Shown here in pieces: positions 39,381-46,084 of a stretch of 64,000 bases of DNA. Position 1 is the stretch's first letter; each line of letters opens with the position of its first letter. The stretch lies in the NCBI GenBank assembly GCA_963675595.2, contig CAXXLZ010000002.1, forward strand, positions 4,064,001 to 4,128,000. Reading direction: 5' to 3'. The notes beneath the pieces were generated by a model, which had not been told where the DNA came from, made no database searches, and saw nothing but the letters and a program-made list of their open reading frames with translations. The stretch is from Thermodesulfobacteriota bacterium. GTDB lineage: Bacteria; Desulfobacterota; Desulfarculia; JACQYL01. A program made the translations under genes and the position numbers.

Positions 39381-41837
39381 TCAGAAGACTCTATGGCGGA
39401 GCTTCCAGAGCGCGAGTCCCATGGACAGAACCATGAGAAGAATCATGCCCCATTCCGACAGGGTGGGCACGGAGGCGACGGCAGGCCCGGTCCGGCGCGC
39501 GCCGATGCCGCCCGGGTCAACGGTCTCGCCGTTTGCGATGCCGTCCTGATCCCCTTCGCCCCCGTCCGTCAGGATGAGCACAAAGGTGTTGTCCCCGTCA
39601 TTCAGCCCCCCCACGTTGGCGTAGGGGGTGTAAGCGCCGGTTTCTTCGTCGAACTTGTAAAAGGTGGAGCCCACGGGAATGCTTCCGGTCATGGTGAACG
39701 CGATGCGGACCGTGCCTCCCACGGGAACGTTGACGACCTTGAAGTCCATGATCCCCCAGGGGAAGTCCGTGCTGGGGGGCGGGGTCCCGCCGGGGTCTTG
39801 ACTGTTCATGTAAAGGATGTAGGGACCTCCCTCGCTCCTCTCGATCTGCATTTCCCAGCCCGCCGCCGGCCCGTCGATGAAATGGGAATCGAAGGAACCC
39901 TGCACCACGGTGCAGGTCTTGTCGGCAATGCTGATGGTTCCGGTCCGGGGTTGATTGGGGTAGCCGTTTTCCGTGATGCGGTAGGTCACCGCGCCGTTCC
40001 CGGTTCCGGAGGCTTCGCCGGTGAGGATGATCCATTCGGCGTTTGAAGCGGCGGTCCAAGGACACCTTTCGGGGATCGTCACATCCATGGTCAAGTTGTT
40101 CGTTGCATCCGGTCCGTGCTGGGGATTCTCGGGATCGATGACTGCCGTGCAGGCGCTCCACAGGGCGTAGAGAGTCCGATCGGCTGCAGGCATGTTGAAC
40201 GTGTCCCCCGGGTCGTACGCGCTTCCGCCCCCGCCCTCCTCGGTGTTCCATTCTTTGAAACCGTAACCGGATTTCTCCATCGTGCCCGGTTCGGGCACGG
40301 TGACCGTATCTCCTGCCTCGTAGGCTTTGGCGTCCGTGGGAGCGGTCCCGCCCGTATTGCCGTTGCCGTCGTAAGTGACCGTGTAGGTGGGTACAAAATT
40401 AGCGGTGACCGTGGCCGAGCCCGTCAGGGTCAACGTGGTGGCGGGGTCGGACGCGTCGCCGAAGGCCGCATTTTCGGCCGGGTCGGCTGTCCAGTTGACA
40501 AAGGCATAGCCGGACGTAGATGTTCCCGTAATGTCTTGAGTGGCGCCCGCGTCCAGAATGGTCTTTGTTCCCGAGGCGGGCACGGTCGTACCCCCTGCGT
40601 CCGGGTCCTTGGCCATGGTGAGGGCCACCTTAACGGTTAGTGTGCCGTTGACATAAGTGATATCGTAGTTGGCAAGTCCTGTTCCCTGTGCGTTGGAAGC
40701 TTCAATGTCATACGTTCCCGGCGATGCATCAGCTGCCGCGCCGGTACTTGTCAATGTAACGGATGTGATGGAATCACCGTTGACAAGTCCTGAGTCTGTG
40801 AATTCCGTCCCCGCAAATGTCAATGTCGTGCCTTGGACTTTGGAGGTATTATCCGCCGTGATCGTCAGGGCTTTCTCCGTTACCGTCAAGTCTCCAGCTG
40901 AGTAAGTTATAGAATAATTTGAAGATGTAAACGTCCCTCCGGTGGCGGAACTGATGCCGATTACATCGCTGTACGTGCCTACAGTGTCCGATGCCTCATT
41001 CCCGCCCGAATACGCAACGGATACACTTCCGATGGTCTCCGAACCTGCCAGTCCGTTTGAAGTAAACGCCGTGTATCCTGTTCCATCGTTCAGGGTTGTT
41101 CCGTACTCTTTGCTCCCTGCGGTAGCCGTTACGAGCAAATTCTCGGGATTAATATCCGCCTTGGCGGAGGCGGTTGTTGAAGAAAGAGAAAATTTGCCCG
41201 AATCATTACCTGACAATGAAATATCGGTGATGACAACATTTATGTCATTGCCGACATTTTCACCGTCGAAAACAGCGGCGGAATAGGTGGCTGAAACATC
41301 ATAGGCTGTAAAGATATTCTGCAGGTCCAAATCAGCCGTTGCAGTTGTTGTGCCGTCATAGGCTTTGTCGTGGGCAACTGCAATCGCGGTCAGCCGTACT
41401 TGAGCGTCACCGGTTATCTCGCCGGTATTGGAGATTGTCGTGCCGCCCACGCCCATATCAATGGTCTTGATTCCGCTGTTTCCGGCCGTCAGGTTGTTCG
41501 TGGCGTTCGAACCGGTCATGGACTGAGCTGTTCCATCGAGAATGACCGTGCCGGTTCCGGCGTTGAAGGTCCCGGAGTTGCTCCAGTCGCCCGCGCACTG
41601 AATGATACCCGCTCCCGATGTCAACGTTCCGTTGGCCTGAACAGCGATGCCGCCCGCGCCCACATCGAGGGTGTTGTCGCCCACGGAAAGCGTCGAACCG
41701 GTGGTCCCGTCCCCGATGGTGAGCTTGTCGCATGCCGTGTCGCACGAAAGGGTCAACTGGGCGGCTCCCAGCGCCGTTCCGGCCATCAGGACAGCAGTCG
41801 CGATTACCATACCGCTCCAAAGGGATATTTTTCTCAT
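39381..41837 (-). CDS. Secreted multidomain surface protein (YDG, MBG x2, InlB-B/Flg_new-like repeats, BACON-like, choice-of-anchor-like) with IPTL-CTERM
   Basis: Signal peptide and SD AAGGAG; DKAYDG; SK.YG...NY.ITY..G.LTV twice; YTVTYDGNG...LYALW; VPTLSEWGMILL followed by TM and basic tail. Confidence 0.82.
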   Translation of the reverse strand: MRKISLWSGMVIATAVLMAGTALGAAQLTLSCDTACDKLTIGDGTTGSTLSVGDNTLDVGAGGIAVQANGTLTSGAGIIQCAGDWSNSGTFNAGTGTVILDGTAQSMTGSNATNNLTAGNSGIKTIDMGVGGTTISNTGEITGDAQVRLTAIAVAHDKAYDGTTTATADLDLQNIFTAYDVSATYSAAVFDGENVGNDINVVITDISLSGNDSGKFSLSSTTASAKADINPENLLVTATAGSKEYGTTLNDGTGYTAFTSNGLAGSETIGSVSVAYSGGNEASDTVGTYSDVIGISSATGGTFTSSNYSITYSAGDLTVTEKALTITADNTSKVQGTTLTFAGTEFTDSGLVNGDSITSVTLTSTGAAADASPGTYDIEASNAQGTGLANYDITYVNGTLTVKVALTMAKDPDAGGTTVPASGTKTILDAGATQDITGTSTSGYAFVNWTADPAENAAFGDASDPATTLTLTGSATVTANFVPTYTVTYDGNGNTGGTAPTDAKAYEAGDTVTVPEPGTMEKSGYGFKEWNTEEGGGGSAYDPGDTFNMPAADRTLYALWSACTAVIDPENPQHGPDATNNLTMDVTIPERCPWTAASNAEWIILTGEASGTGNGAVTYRITENGYPNQPRTGTISIADKTCTVVQGSFDSHFIDGPAAGWEMQIERSEGGPYILYMNSQDPGGTPPPSTDFPWGIMDFKVVNVPVGGTVRIAFTMTGSIPVGSTFYKFDEETGAYTPYANVGGLNDGDNTFVLILTDGGEGDQDGIANGETVDPGGIGARRTGPAVASVPTLSEWGMILLMVLSMGLALWKLRHRVF

Positions 41838-41851
41838 GGGGATTTCTCCTT

Positions 41852-42109
41852 AGAGCCCGAAAAACCCGCAATTGGATGGCCAAACATACCGAGGAGATCG
41901 AGCTTTTCCATCTGCCTGCTTACAGCCCTGACCGAAACCCGGATGAGTTGCTTAGCCGTGACGTCACAAGTAATACCGCCCGAAAGAGAACAGTCGGGAA
42001 CCTCAAAGGCGTTATGAGGATCATCCGGAGTCACCTCTGGAAACAACAGTGGCGGCCTGAACTCTTCCGGAGCTTCTTCAAGAAGCAACAGGCTGCTTAC
42101 GCTGCATAA
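41852..42109 (+). pseudogene. IS630-family transposase C-terminal remnant
   Basis: IELFHLPAYSPDRNPDE (LP.YSPELNP.E motif), ...SFFK...YAA end; N-terminus missing. Confidence 0.8.
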
Positions 42110-42217
42110 ATACTAATCGATTTTCGTGTTTTGATTTTGGGTTGAGGTTTCAATTCGATCCGGTGGATCGCGCCGATGCGTCTGTTGCATTGGGGAGGTA
42201 TGGAATCTGTTCCTACC

Positions 42218-42368
42218 AGGCTGTTGAAGAACGCGATCTGCGGCGTTGCGCTTCATCCCTCGTCACTGCGACGTACTCTATGTACGTCTCATTCCTCAGG
42301 ATTTGCGCGCCTTGCATCTCATCGTTTTTCAGCAGCCTGCCGCAACCGGCTTTTTTCAACGGGCTGCT
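42218..42368. repeat. Palindromic MITE/REP-like repeat (family B), target of the IS110
   Basis: Terminal IR AGGCTGTTGAAGAACG / CGTTTTTCAGCAGCCT (42218-42338) plus an extra end TTTTTTCAACGGGCTGCT; internally deleted copy at 60281-60335. Confidence 0.82.
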
Positions 42369-42446
42369 GATATGGCTGCACACGTCAATAGGGCGCAGCA
42401 TTCTTCCGCCCCTTGTAGCGTTGGGGTATGGCTACCATTTATGGAA

Positions 42447-42641
42447 CTTCAACCTGCGGACAGAGGCGGAACCTGCATAGCGACGGTGGATCATGCTGAT
42501 ATTCGCGGGTTGGTTACCGCCGGACTTGGTTCGTCGCGGAGCTGCCTCTTTCTAGAGACGAGGGTTCGGCAGATGCCAGATCTCCTATCAGGTCACGAGG
42601 ATTCTCCTTACCGCGGTTGCGCCCCTGCTCACAGGTTGAAG
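42447..42641 (-). ncRNA. Predicted bridge RNA / seekRNA of the IS110
   Basis: Closed by CTTCAACCTG/CAGGTTGAAG and a longer outer stem; two internal-loop domains carrying donor-matching (ATATCAG) and target-matching (CCTGAT, TCTCTAG) segments. Confidence 0.72.
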
Positions 42642-42707
42642 CCGGTGTTTTTCCCTTTTACAGTGCCGTCCTCCTTCCAAATCGAACGATATGGTGTTGA
42701 TGTGAGG

Positions 42708-43814
42708 CTAAGCGGCAACGGGAACCTCTCTGGCGATCGCCCACAGAAAGGCGGCCATCTCCCTTGCAATGGCCGTGACGGCCACTTGCGACGGCTTACC
42801 CCGGGCCATCAGCCGGTGGTACCGGCCGCACAGACGCAGCTGGGCCTTCCAGCCGATCTTGCAGACCTCGGACGGCGCCTCCTCCCGCCGATCCCTCAGC
42901 CTGCGGCCCACTCGGGGCGGATAGCGATAGGTCCAGGCCCCCTGGATCAATACCCGGCGCGCATGTCCGTTGCCGGACTTGGTAATGCCTCCTTGTTTGC
43001 GCCGTCCTCCGCTGGAACTCTCCGAGGGGACCAAACCCAGATACGCCGTCAACTGCCCGGGCTCATCAAATCGCGTCATGTCGCCCACTTCGGCCACCAC
43101 AGTGACGGCCACGATCAACGACACGCCTCGCATCGATTGGAAGGCCTCCACGACCGGTTTCATAGGCCAGTGCTCCACCTGCTCGCCAATCTGCTCCACC
43201 AATCGCGCCACCCGGCGCTCGCACTCTTCAATGGTGTCGATATACTCCTGAAAAACGATCTGCTGGGCCGGGTGTTCAAACGACTGGTCCGAAAGCCACC
43301 TCCGGTGGGCCCGGCTCCACTTCCGCGGCCCGCCGTACTTCCGACCGTGGCGCAGCAAAAAGGCGTTGAGCCGCTGTTTGGCCTTTCGCTCCGAGCTCTT
43401 GGCATCCTCCCGGGCCCTGGTCAAATCCCGTATCGCCTCGTCCTCCACACGGGGAACATACACCCCCGTGAGTTCTCCAGCCCGATGAAGACGAGCCAGG
43501 GTGACCGCATCCCGTCGATCCGTCTTGATCCGATCGCCGGCTCGTTGGGGCGTCAGCGAGGGCGCCACGACCGTGCAATGGATTCCCCGGGCATGCAGGT
43601 GCCGGTAAAGAACATAGCCGCACGGGCCGGCTTCGTAGACCACCCGAAGCCGATCCTTCTTGTAGCCCAGCCGGCGAATCAATCGATCCACATCCGACGG
43701 CTCCCCGTTGATCTTGCCGTAAGATCGGACTTCTCCATCACGGGACCCTTCGGCCAGGGCAACGTCTATCGATTTCTGGTGAACATCCAATCCAACAAAG
43801 ATAAAATCGGTCAT
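42708..43814 (-). CDS. IS110-family DEDD recombinase/transposase
   Basis: GLDVHQ, YEAG, KTDRRDA (DEDD), GLVPSESSSGG (catalytic Ser loop), TAIARE; SD AAGGAGG. Confidence 0.95.
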   Translation of the reverse strand: MTDFIFVGLDVHQKSIDVALAEGSRDGEVRSYGKINGEPSDVDRLIRRLGYKKDRLRVVYEAGPCGYVLYRHLHARGIHCTVVAPSLTPQRAGDRIKTDRRDAVTLARLHRAGELTGVYVPRVEDEAIRDLTRAREDAKSSERKAKQRLNAFLLRHGRKYGGPRKWSRAHRRWLSDQSFEHPAQQIVFQEYIDTIEECERRVARLVEQIGEQVEHWPMKPVVEAFQSMRGVSLIVAVTVVAEVGDMTRFDEPGQLTAYLGLVPSESSSGGRRKQGGITKSGNGHARRVLIQGAWTYRYPPRVGRRLRDRREEAPSEVCKIGWKAQLRLCGRYHRLMARGKPSQVAVTAIAREMAAFLWAIAREVPVAA

Positions 43815-43918
43815 GGCCTGCCTCCTTGGTGTTGGTTCTGTGGGCGTGGTGATTACTCGCACCATAACCCAACAACGCAGGAGACGGGCCTACTTTCCTG
43901 CACGTGCAGCCATTATGT

Positions 43919-46084
43919 CTACAGATCATCCACCCGTATATGGCCCGGATTCTGCGGGCCGTTCGAACTCTGGTCATTCAGGGTGCAGGCGTTTCCGTAA
44001 AAGCGGATACAATATGCGTTGTTCCCGTGGTTGATCCAACGCCCGTCCGCGCCGATGTCCAGTGCTCCGCCCAGCAGCAGGTCATGCGTCCAGCCTGAGA
44101 GGTCAACGGAGCCCCTGGTGATGGTCAGGGCAGTGGCCACGGTGACATCCGATCCGGTGTTGATGTCCAGTATGTCGTCAGACGCGTCCTTGTTCAGGGT
44201 CAGGGACTTAAAATTCCAGGCGCCGCTGCCGCTCAAAGAGCTGGTTAAAGGACCCGAAAATACGACCTCTGAATCGTCGGCGCAGGTCAGGGTTCCGGAG
44301 TTGTTCAGATTTCCCTGCACGGTCAGGTCGGTGCCGTCGCCATTGGCAATGGTCAGGGTAACACCGGAATCAATGGTCAAATCCCCGTTGACGCTGAGGG
44401 CTCCTCCTGTTGTTTTTATACCCGATCCACTGACGGCAAGATGATGACAGGTACCGGCGAATATCGCCTGATCCGCATCCCGTTGATAGGTGAGAGTACC
44501 GCCGGATACATTCAAGGTTCCGCTTCCGGCTGTTGCCCCGGAAATGGTGATTGCGCTTGAAGTGGTTTCGATGGATGTTGTGCCGGTCACATTGACGTTT
44601 CCATTTTGACTTTCAAAATTCACATCTCCGCTGTCAGTCACTATTCGGACTCCGGCGAGCGTGATATCGTCACTCTGGGCAACAAGCTGAATCCTGCTGG
44701 AACCTGTCGCGATAAGCGCTCCGTTATTGCTCTCGCCGTTACCGGTAATGCTTATCTCGCCCGTTTTGGCGATGATTGCGGAATCGGTATCCGTGAAACG
44801 AGCCAGACCGCCGTCCTCCAGGGCGAAAGAAGCGACGGCATAAGCGTCGTCTATGTCCGGATCGTTACTGGTCGTGGACGCATCGGGGATCAGTACATCG
44901 TCCGCTTCGTCGGGAATGCTGCCGTCCTGCCAGTTGAGTGCCTCCTGCCAGTTGCTGCTCGCCTGTCCGGTCCACAGCCCGGGCCTCCCATTGACCGTCA
45001 GTTGTCGGGAAACCGGGAGAGCGGGGTTATAGGTATCGTCTCCAGCCTGGGAGGCCGTAATATTTGCCGTTCCCACGTCGATGATGTGAATTTTCCCGCT
45101 TAGTATGGTAGCCACACTAGTGTTGTCACCGGAATAGCTTACTGGAAGACTTGAACTGGCGGTTGCTCCGGGAGCAAAATCAGCGTCTCCAAAAGTCTTG
45201 GCTGGAAGTTCGCCAAAGGTGATGGTTTGGTCGGCTTTGGTTGTGGTCTGGGACTGGTATGAGGTGTAGGCGCCTGTACCGGCTTCATTTTCTCCGCGGA
45301 TACGAATATAATACGTTGTATTTGGCGAAAGCCCGGTTACAGTGGTGCTGCCGGATGAAATTTCAGTTCCGCTCTTGACTACATTGGTGAAAGCCGTATT
45401 TGTACTTACCTGATAATCCCAGTCGGTAATGCGATAATTGTTGTCACTGGTTTTGTTTATAATGAAAGAACTGCTTGCCGCGCTGGATACGGAGAAGGAG
45501 GGATTTACCGGAATGGAATAGTTCCACCAGATAGCCATTTCGACTCTATAGTCATCATCAGTGGTAGTCCCTGATTTCACATAACCACTGCAGGTTCCGC
45601 TGCTGCAGGCGCCGTAGAACCCTGTCCATAAGTTTCTGCTGTTCCCGCTGATATTGGTATCAATGTTTTCATAACTAGCAAAATCGTCATCTCCACCGTT
45701 ATTTGTGCAATTTGGAGCATCATCATTCTCCCATCCAGAAATAAGAATATACAGATCATCGGCATTATCAAGTATTTTTCCCGTCCAGATTGTATCAAGC
45801 GAGCAATGCCACCATCTACCTGATTCATAATCGTCGGAGTTGTTATAGCAGAGTAGGCCCGAATAAGTGCCGGAGGAAGATAATTTATACTGCAATGTCC
45901 ACGCAAGCTCTTCATCACCATTTTCACCGCCACTGACATTGGCATAGAAATCATCGGTCCTTATTGCATAATCAATATAGACTGCGGCCCGACATGTATT
46001 GCCAAACGCCATTGCAAGCACACATGTAAAGAGTACGCTCAGAAATTTCAATGAGGTCTTCATTTTATTCTCCGTATATTTCAT
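43919..46084 (-). CDS. Large secreted protein (N-terminal globular domain, FN3, Ig-like, beta-helix-like C-terminus)
   Basis: Signal peptide; VTGLSPNTTYYIRIRGEN (FN3); KADQTITF...ASSSLPVSY (Ig-like); WTG..SSNW...NW; Gly/Thr-rich repeats. Confidence 0.78.
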   Translation of the reverse strand: MKYTENKMKTSLKFLSVLFTCVLAMAFGNTCRAAVYIDYAIRTDDFYANVSGGENGDEELAWTLQYKLSSSGTYSGLLCYNNSDDYESGRWWHCSLDTIWTGKILDNADDLYILISGWENDDAPNCTNNGGDDDFASYENIDTNISGNSRNLWTGFYGACSSGTCSGYVKSGTTTDDDYRVEMAIWWNYSIPVNPSFSVSSAASSSFIINKTSDNNYRITDWDYQVSTNTAFTNVVKSGTEISSGSTTVTGLSPNTTYYIRIRGENEAGTGAYTSYQSQTTTKADQTITFGELPAKTFGDADFAPGATASSSLPVSYSGDNTSVATILSGKIHIIDVGTANITASQAGDDTYNPALPVSRQLTVNGRPGLWTGQASSNWQEALNWQDGSIPDEADDVLIPDASTTSNDPDIDDAYAVASFALEDGGLARFTDTDSAIIAKTGEISITGNGESNNGALIATGSSRIQLVAQSDDITLAGVRIVTDSGDVNFESQNGNVNVTGTTSIETTSSAITISGATAGSGTLNVSGGTLTYQRDADQAIFAGTCHHLAVSGSGIKTTGGALSVNGDLTIDSGVTLTIANGDGTDLTVQGNLNNSGTLTCADDSEVVFSGPLTSSLSGSGAWNFKSLTLNKDASDDILDINTGSDVTVATALTITRGSVDLSGWTHDLLLGGALDIGADGRWINHGNNAYCIRFYGNACTLNDQSSNGPQNPGHIRVDDL

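Follow-up and report, generated by a model that had tools for sequence, protein, structure and literature searches.

In this work, we analyzed a 64,000-nt stretch of genomic DNA from a Thermodesulfobacteriota bacterium (contig CAXXLZ010000002.1, positions 4,064,001 to 4,128,000; hereafter the window) and focused on an insertion sequence that occupies positions 42369-43920 of its minus strand. The element carries a transposase gene and, downstream of this gene, a non-coding region predicted to encode a guide RNA with two internal loops, and it is inserted at the end of a host repeat. An earlier note, made from the sequence alone, had described it as a complete IS1111-type member of the IS110 family with an RNA that matches its own target and donor sites; all coordinates and strings given there are present in the sequence. 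The element, its ends, its gene, and its insertion site are arranged as follows (window positions).

42369..43920, minus strand: the whole insertion sequence, 1552 bp, delimited by five copies of the same length and an empty-site contig.
43914..43920, minus strand: left terminal extension of 7 nt, AGACATA in the sense orientation; TAG followed by ACATAATGG is kept in relatives.
43912..43917, minus strand: CATAAT, a -10-like hexamer in the left end.
43904..43913, minus strand: left subterminal inverted repeat with the sense sequence ATGGCTGCAC, whose 10 bp match 42372-42381 perfectly in inverted orientation.
42708..43814, minus strand: gene for a transposase of 368 aa that combines a RuvC-like domain of the DEDD type with a Ser domain at the C-terminus (GLVPSESSSG), assigned by Pfam and NCBIfam.
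42383..42388, minus strand: TTGACG, a -35-like hexamer at the right end; TTGACA is kept ahead of the right inverted repeat in relatives.
42372..42381, minus strand: right subterminal inverted repeat with the sense sequence GTGCAGCCAT; the extension of 3 nt beyond it is ATC (42369-42371).
42214..42368, no strand assigned: host repeat of about 150 nt, hit 169 times by BLAST across the genome; the window copy is inserted at its end, ...TTCAACGGGCTG-CT.

A DNA search of the organism's own genome (6.79 Mb in three contigs) returned 44 matches, five of which are full-length copies with 98-100% identity, while the other 39 span just query bases 1 to 63-78, corresponding to the left flank. When aligned, the five copies follow an identical course from GATATGG... 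to ...CATTATGTCT (plus strand of the window) and diverge beyond both ends. Each copy is exactly 1552 bp long, and the transposase reading frame is open in all five. At the window copy, the left junction reads ...ACGGGCTG-CT-GATATGG (42367-42369) and the right junction reads CATTATGT-CT-ACAGATC (43919-43921); by the IS1111 convention for ends, the AG of the left end (CT on the plus strand, 43919-43920) was counted within the element. An empty site was found in a public contig (two runs of one sample) that fuses position 42366 to 43919 and omits the 1552 bases. Two letters (CT) are assignable to either side of this joint, and the empty site reads GGGCTG-CT-ACAGATC. The shorter side of the joint has 30 letters and lies in the repeat; the evidence rests on the unique right side, along which the contig extends for 482 bases with three differences. 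In a contig from a third run, labelled as another organism, the element is joined to the opposite end of the host repeat.

Because five copies of 1552 bp diverge at the same ends and a contig with the empty site exists, the element is bounded and recently mobile. It is thus real and complete, with the ends that the earlier note had given, and the mapping of genomic copies and empty sites which that note had proposed yielded both. A decayed or immobile relic with a non-functional RNA would suit the observation that the site of the window copy fits its guides only partly (see below), but this explanation is exceedingly improbable in view of five copies with 98-100% identity and open frames throughout, a presence/absence polymorphism located exactly at the predicted ends, and a second organism's contig with a copy at another repeat end. 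No stand-alone copies of the RNA gene were found by the DNA search of the organism's own genome. Among the five genomes searched across the order, which are too few for claims on distribution, the element was found only in the window's own genome.

The 10-bp subterminal repeats, which had been placed 3 nt from the right end and 7 nt (including CT) from the left end, form a perfect match (42372-42381 and 43904-43913). In relatives, the inverted repeat is found at the same place and is 11-15 bp long. The non-coding DNA comprises 339 nt after the stop codon (42369-42707), compared with 106 nt before the start codon. When the two ends are joined, TTGACG and CATAAT are separated by a spacer of 17 nt and form a putative promoter that exists on the circle junction only. 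A circle-junction promoter has been described for ISEc11 (PMC11187229).

The protein encoded at 42708-43814 matches PF01548 (E 5e-17) and PF02371 (E 3.3e-22) in Pfam, as well as the NCBIfam family NF033542, named "IS110 family RNA-guided transposase" (277 bits compared with a cut-off of 140). In an alignment of the window protein with 39 relatives, the DEDD residues D10, E61, D99, and D102 are invariant, as are G260, P263, and G269, and L259, L261, S267, and S268 are invariant or nearly so. The DEDD and SSSGG motifs had earlier been described as intact, and GLVPSESSSG is present in the window protein. With its DEDD domain (PF01548) and a PF02371 domain containing Ser-Gly, the protein belongs to the IS110 family. 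Within this family, the IS1111 group is marked by subterminal inverted repeats, extensions of 7 nt at the left and 3 nt at the right end, a downstream non-coding region, the absence of target duplication, and the motif GL-P----S(t)G, according to the description by Siddiquee et al. (2024, PMC11187229). The window element shows the subterminal repeats, the 7- and 3-nt extensions, the downstream non-coding region, and the motif. By comparison, members of the IS110 group proper (IS621-like) have an upstream RNA and no or very short repeats, and the window element, with its RNA downstream and a repeat of 10 bp, does not show this arrangement.

Relatives of this transposase are very numerous. As many as 7997 of the 8000 scored candidates have E <= 1e-40; they are mostly metagenomic, and their source labels are just "transposase" or "IS110 family transposase." The top three relatives other than the element itself have identities of 90%, 88%, and 81%, nearly all relatives lie on short metagenome contigs, and the transposases of relatives have 368-372 aa. 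A single-protein scan of genome contigs found three loci with 49-59% identity, and plasmid genes annotated as ISSso6 family and ISEc45 family are 49 and 48% identical, respectively. The structurally solved recombinases of IS621 (E 5.5e-07) and ISCro4 (E 3.7e-08) are distant matches in which parts of the protein are aligned. The loci gathered for comparison comprise three from genome contigs and 80 from metagenome contigs, with amino-acid identities of 49-63%.

The region downstream of the transposase gene is predicted to contain the following RNA features.

42440..42645, minus strand: predicted guide RNA (bridge RNA or long seekRNA), an outer stem around a target domain and a donor domain, based on the alignment and RNAalifold.
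42585..42596, minus strand: predicted target loop (loop 1), 5' strand (GUGACCUGAUAG), complementing the sense-strand target, which spans the final base of the left flank, the dinucleotide at the crossover, and the right flank.
42549..42559, minus strand: predicted target loop, 3' strand (GUCUCUAGAAA), which reads in the sense of the left flank, AG, and the first base of the element.
42520..42531, minus strand: predicted donor loop (loop 2), 5' strand (AACCAAGUCCGG), a partial complement of AG plus the left end ACAT.
42486..42504, minus strand: predicted donor loop, 3' strand, which holds AUAUCAG (42496-42502).

The RNA region was aligned for 44 loci and the window (262 columns). From this 45-sequence alignment, RNAalifold predicted 44 pairs, 34 of which have compensatory changes. 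We also set 22 pairs by hand, which make up the five helices bordering both loops; 95.5% of their cells are paired, compared with 34-48% for slid partners and 87.5% for shuffled partners (0 of 500 shuffles reach the observed value), and 14 of these pairs have double changes. The helices are GGAG/CUCC, CCUC/GAGG, GAG/CUC, GCGACG/CGUCGC, and GCGG/CCGC, within a long outer stem, and the stems named in the earlier note were thus confirmed through covariation in relatives. Building a covariance model of the 3' end, as had been suggested there, gave a model (R1) with a core of 140 positions, against which the window core (42478-42616) scores 128.6 bits. This model matches 85 of 92 sources, always on the transposase strand and 3' of the gene; the matches comprise the organism's five own copies, the 44 relatives used in model building, and 36 of the 43 loci outside the model. 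The seven misses (L033, L041, L043, L050, L087, L088, and L101) lie on cut contigs with at most 158 nt left after the stop codon. Among these matches, ISSso6 and a plasmid element of Azospirillum score 94.2 and 96.2 bits, and ISEc45 and a plasmid element of Klebsiella score 35.7 and 38.4 bits, respectively. In Rfam, no match was found over 41500-44800 at E <= 1, and hence no curated family exists for this RNA. These patterns of pairing support the prediction of a conserved structured RNA in the 3' non-coding end.

Several observations weigh against a guide RNA and favor the alternative that the 3' region is a DNA or messenger RNA element (such as a recombinase site, a terminator, or a stability element) with matches between loops and flanks that arose by chance. 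The single-sequence fold of the 342-nt 3' region is weak (minimum free energy of -118 kcal/mol, z -2.23; 2 of 100 shuffles equal it); this z-score was given no weight, and the RNA evidence was drawn from relatives. No RNA run is recorded among the five public runs containing the sequence, although this is uninformative either way. Moreover, a sigma-70 scan based on a simple consensus match, which does not prove absence, found no internal minus-strand promoter ahead of the RNA. Set against these points are the compensatory changes in 34 of the 44 pairs, the hypervariable loop strands located between conserved stems, an agreement between loops and flanks above that of 10000 of 10000 shuffles (see below), and the same architecture that was experimentally shown in relatives from the group (PMC11187229). 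We therefore consider it very improbable that the 3' region acts merely as such an element, and we treat it as encoding a predicted guide RNA.

In the 45-sequence alignment, both strands of loop 1 are hypervariable, with conserved stems on either side. In the window, GACCTGAT is the reverse complement of 42587-42594 and TCTCTAG is that of 42552-42558. The 5' strand corresponds to the reverse complement of the right flank including the crossover, with 9/9 matches in L052, L099, and L111 and 8/9 in L047 and L114. Across 43 loci, 189 of 301 positions are matched, compared with 92.5 after shuffling; the signal comes from the five flank bases beside the crossover and the second crossover base, and about 5-7 flank bases carry signal on this side. 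For the 3' strand and the left flank, the corresponding count is 110 of 217 positions (31 loci) compared with 67.6, and the signal comes from the three flank bases adjoining AG, where GAG and CAG variants covary in L064, L073, and L076. In neither case is any of 10000 shuffles as high, which gives a positive answer to the covariation of loop bases with flanking targets that the earlier note had proposed to examine. Both results survive the removal of duplicate guides. Related elements share targets, so the 43 loci are not independent events; the diversity of guides is nonetheless large. In the automatic count, the window, L032, and L044 are one base out of register and their match is understated, which we chose to correct by eye for the tally of crossover bases given below.

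The two strands of loop 1 also overlap on the target, and the shared flank base agrees in 43 of 45 sequences, G-C and A-U variants included. The top-strand match lies 5' of the bottom-strand match, and this is the order reported for IS1111 seekRNAs, in which the top-strand match precedes the bottom-strand match with an overlap on the target, while the order is reversed in IS110 (Siddiquee et al., PMC11187229). The loop assignments and registers that had been proposed for the window are the same as those of the family. On the other side of the balance, L040, L056, and L084 have poor flank matches, and L109 fits poorly at the crossover base. As a whole, loop strands that are complementary to both target strands and that covary with the insertion sites were found, and the predicted target-guiding role of loop 1 is thus supported, with much higher confidence than the donor-binding role of loop 2.

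The five copies in the genome provide a comparison between guides and occupied sites. The 5' guide strand is UGACCUGAU in copies 1-4 and UGACCUGUU in copy 5, and the right flanks, given as reverse complements, match the guide of the respective copy as follows.

Two of copies 2-4: ..CAGCCTGAT, own-guide match of 6 contiguous bases.
One of copies 2-4: ..CAGGCTGAT, own-guide match of 5 contiguous bases.
Copy 5: ..CAGCCTGTT, own-guide match of 6 contiguous bases.
Window copy: ..CGGGCTGCT, own-guide match of 5/9.

The matches of six contiguous bases are those of copies 2, 3, and 5. In copy 5, the guide has GUU compared with GAU elsewhere and the junction has TT compared with AT, such that the change in the guide is mirrored at the junction. 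The 3' strand UCUCUAG has 3-4 contiguous left-flank matches ending at the crossover AG; the matched bases are CTAG in three copies, whereas copy 5 and the window copy have TAG. The window copy, whose flanks fit its guides at 5/9 (5' strand) and 6/9 (3' strand), occupies a partial-match site, and its own-target match is weaker than those of copies 2-5.

Copy 5 (G000:C2:4494743-4496315, locus L005) is 98% identical and has six changes in the RNA of about 200 nt, two of which are in guide positions. Over 7 nt, its 3' guide UCUGUAG agrees with the window copy's left flank, a better fit than that of the window copy's own guide. This fit, which rests on one base, may reflect either guidance in trans or chance. 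Judging from the guides, the ideal site would be TCT-AT-CAGGT in the sense orientation, equal to ACCTG-AT-AGA on the plus strand, or about (TG)ACCTG-AT-AGA. The target proposed earlier, CCTG-CT-AGAGA at the repeat end, was right in substance, but the loop specifies AT and only about three of the AGAGA bases count. Ten-base ideal sites (ACCTGATAGA) occur five times in the genome.

Conservation is far higher in loop 2 than in loop 1, and this would be expected of a loop that reads conserved ends. The sequence AUAUCAG exactly copies the terminal 5 nt at the right end, followed by AG (ATATCAG is the reverse complement of 42496-42502), and ATATC was found in 43 of the 45 aligned sequences. In L094, both the loop and the right end have ATAGC. 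Among the four relatives in which the left end is ACAG, three have the complementary C in the 5' strand of the loop, although these relatives are mutually related. The 5' strand is compared with the left end in the same register across the family. However, several points argue against a donor-reading loop. The match between this 5' strand and the left end is weak, with 5/9 for the window; L086 (ATAGC end, unchanged loop) and L062 (changed loop, unchanged end) are out of step; and the element ends are nearly invariant, such that the covariation of the donor loop comes from one or two events.

These points would be accommodated if the RNA were a seekRNA only, in which the choice of target is guided by loop 1, the second domain serves as a scaffold for protein binding, and the ends are recognized by the recombinase through the inverted repeats. 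In the report on ISEc11, a short seekRNA of 82 nt was enough for movement (PMC11187229), from which the second domain may be dispensable in IS1111 elements, a point that also weighs against a two-loop guide. In addition to the 5/9 match and the discordant loops and right ends of L086 and L062, the conservation of AUAUCAG could, given the almost invariant ends, be a protein or structural constraint. This explanation does not account as readily for an exact 7-nt copy of the right end plus AG placed in an internal loop that is built like loop 1, for the shared ATAGC of L094, for the complementary C in three of the four ACAG relatives, or for the donor-matching loops in the IS1111 elements inspected by Durrant et al. 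(PMC11208160). We consider it unlikely, and the predicted role of loop 2 in donor binding is probable. Because the short RNA of ISEc11 is sufficient and the ends vary little, we consider this role less certain than the target-guiding role of loop 1.

The crossover bases follow a pattern that differs in part from the CT core that had been described at both junctions. On the plus strand of the five copies, the right junction is CT in all, whereas the left junction is CT, AT, AT, AT, and TT; the CT core is therefore correct for the window copy but not generally. In the sense orientation, the left junction is invariably T/G/C-AG-ACATA and the 3' strands of loops 1 and 2 invariably have AG, while the right junction is AG, AA, or AT and tracks the 5' strand of loop 1. 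Guide and junction agree at the second crossover position in 43 of 45 sequences, with CU paired with AG 28 times and UU with AA 15 times. In the organism's own genome, AU guides are found with AT three times and a UU guide with AA once. Elements with an AU guide are found at AG sites too, namely, the window copy and the contig of run X5, and the empty repeat ends of the genome have A, G, T, or C at the variable base, with the unoccupied CCTGATAGG among them.

Since near-identical elements with the same guide reside at AT sites (copies 2-4) as well as AG sites (the contig of run X5 and the window copy), an origin of the variable junction base from the target, rather than from the element that would carry it, is favored but not proven. 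The simplest reading is that AG would belong to the element and the target would give A-N, with only the A always shared. A further suggestion, which we put forward tentatively and regard as somewhat doubtful, is that the core in this subfamily may be a single base, with the second base set by the 5' strand of loop 1 only and the exchange occurring beside it on both strands. In that case, the AGA that loop 1 carries in its 3' strand would match the product junction and not the target, like a built-in handshake guide. For IS621, cleavage beside the CT core and handshake guides have been described (PMC13626964).

Taken together, we estimate a probability of about 85% that this element is an RNA-guided insertion sequence of the IS1111 group with a predicted two-loop guide RNA. 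Under this model, the element would excise as a circle, and its joined ends would build the promoter TTGACG-17-CATAAT. This junction promoter would drive the transposase gene and the 3' non-coding region, which would then be processed, as judged from the family. From the 3' region, a structured RNA about 200 nt long would arise, to which the DEDD/Ser recombinase would bind. Based on the covariation, the 5' strand of loop 1 would pair with the top strand (the last left-flank base, the crossover bases, and 5-7 right-flank bases), and the 3' strand would pair with the bottom strand (about three left-flank bases plus AG). Loop 2 would read the joined element ends likewise, a step that is partly shown. 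Recombination would place the element after T-A at the ends of the repeats of about 150 nt, with no duplication past the shared base or bases.

The host repeat is abundant in the genome, with 125 of the 169 BLAST hits spanning at least 100 nt (for example, G000:C2:378014-378171), and four of the five element copies are placed at the end of such a repeat. The repeat ends are inverted, with the pattern ...TTCAAC(A/G)G(C/G)CTG-NT-A..., and a central hairpin has GACGTAC...GTACGTC. A search of Rfam with the repeat copy of the window found no match; the repeat may be of a REP-like or MITE-like kind. Neither of the 8-mers CCTGATAG (130 sites) and CCTGGTAG (180 sites) is enriched within the host repeat, the ends of which are too variable for pattern counts. 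A free repeat end near G000:C2 378014 (...CAGCCTGATAGGGAC) agrees at 9/9 with the CCUGAUAGG of the loop, and good targets are thus still unoccupied. In three metagenome loci that come from other samples (L062, L103, and L113; 56-59% identity), the flanks read AGCCCGTTGG or AGCAGGCTG(C/T)TGAA(A/G)AAGTC, which are repeat ends of the same kind. Different organisms thus seem to share both the repeat family and the use of its ends for insertion.

The element adjoins the TAG stop codon of a 721-aa open reading frame (43919..46084, minus strand), and the AG of this stop codon is the crossover dinucleotide. The end of this reading frame is the same in the occupied and the empty site, and the gene is therefore intact. 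The two flanking reading frames, at 39381-41837 and 43919-46084 (both minus strand), appear to encode two large repetitive proteins of secreted or surface type. The protein of 39381-41837 has a hydrophobic C-terminal stretch (...VPTLSEWGMILLMVLSMGLALWKLRHRVF), which we take to resemble a C-terminal sorting signal. A 584-aa open frame on the plus strand (42246-44000) spans the entire transposase gene in antisense orientation; most likely, this frame arises from G+C-rich codon usage and is not a gene.

The mechanism to which these features point has been established for bridge RNAs (Durrant et al., 2024, PMC11208160) and seekRNAs (Siddiquee et al., 2024, PMC11187229), and bridge RNAs have been predicted in the right end of 93.0% of the IS1111 elements in ISfinder, as reported by Durrant et al. 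(PMC11208160). Compared with ISEc11, ISKpn4, ISPa11, and ISPst6 as described in PMC11187229, the window element shares the 7- and 3-nt extensions, the subterminal repeats, the downstream non-coding region, and the GL-P----SG motif. It also resembles these IS1111 seekRNA elements in its overlapping matches to the top and then the bottom strand, in having no target duplication, and in its putative circle-junction promoter. It differs from the values and targets in that description by a transposase of 368 aa compared with the 330-350 aa quoted, an inverted repeat of 10 bp compared with the usual 11-13, and a target at the end of a host repeat of about 150 nt.

Compared with IS621 as described by Durrant et al. 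(2024, PMC11208160), the likeness lies in a target loop and a putative donor loop that would read both strands around a crossover dinucleotide, a DEDD and Ser recombinase, a repeat element as the target, and a predicted circular intermediate. The differences from that description are a distant protein, an RNA located 3' of the gene and not 5', a reversed order of the guide strands, and long inverted repeats. The second crossover base is also unfixed in the window element (AG, AA, or AT according to the 5' strand), although its own end always has AG. A closer relative is ISSso6, annotated as "IS110-like element ISSso6 family transposase" on Shigella and E. coli plasmids, which is 49% identical over 98% of the protein. 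ISSso6 carries an RNA downstream of the gene that matches R1, has the same right end ...GTCATATC with an AG flank, and has TTGACA before the repeat, but its loop sequences and flanks differ and its left extension is AGGCAGT rather than AGACATA. A further parallel is ISPpu9 of Pseudomonas putida, an IS110-family element that, as portrayed in PMC12288879, is located in repetitive extragenic palindromes and has a small RNA gene downstream of its transposase; stand-alone copies of that RNA gene are reported there, unlike in the genome analyzed here.

Because the mechanism has been published, NCBI names the protein family as RNA-guided, and ISSso6 carries the same RNA, the window element adds a member and not a new system to a class already described in 2024. 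Its main features would not surprise a specialist, as the principle has been in print since that year. The element nonetheless offers a natural and well-resolved IS1111-type example, with exact ends, an empty site, five copies, and a guide variant with a matching junction. The alignment and the covariance model mark the positions in the loop that would be programmable, namely, about three on one side, two at the crossover, and 5-7 on the other side, and for genome-engineering screens, the family represents a ready-made set of recombinase/RNA pairs whose natural targets vary. One point alone could change understanding, namely, the free second crossover base: if it is true, recombinases of the IS1111 type would need no fixed dinucleotide core, unlike that of IS621.

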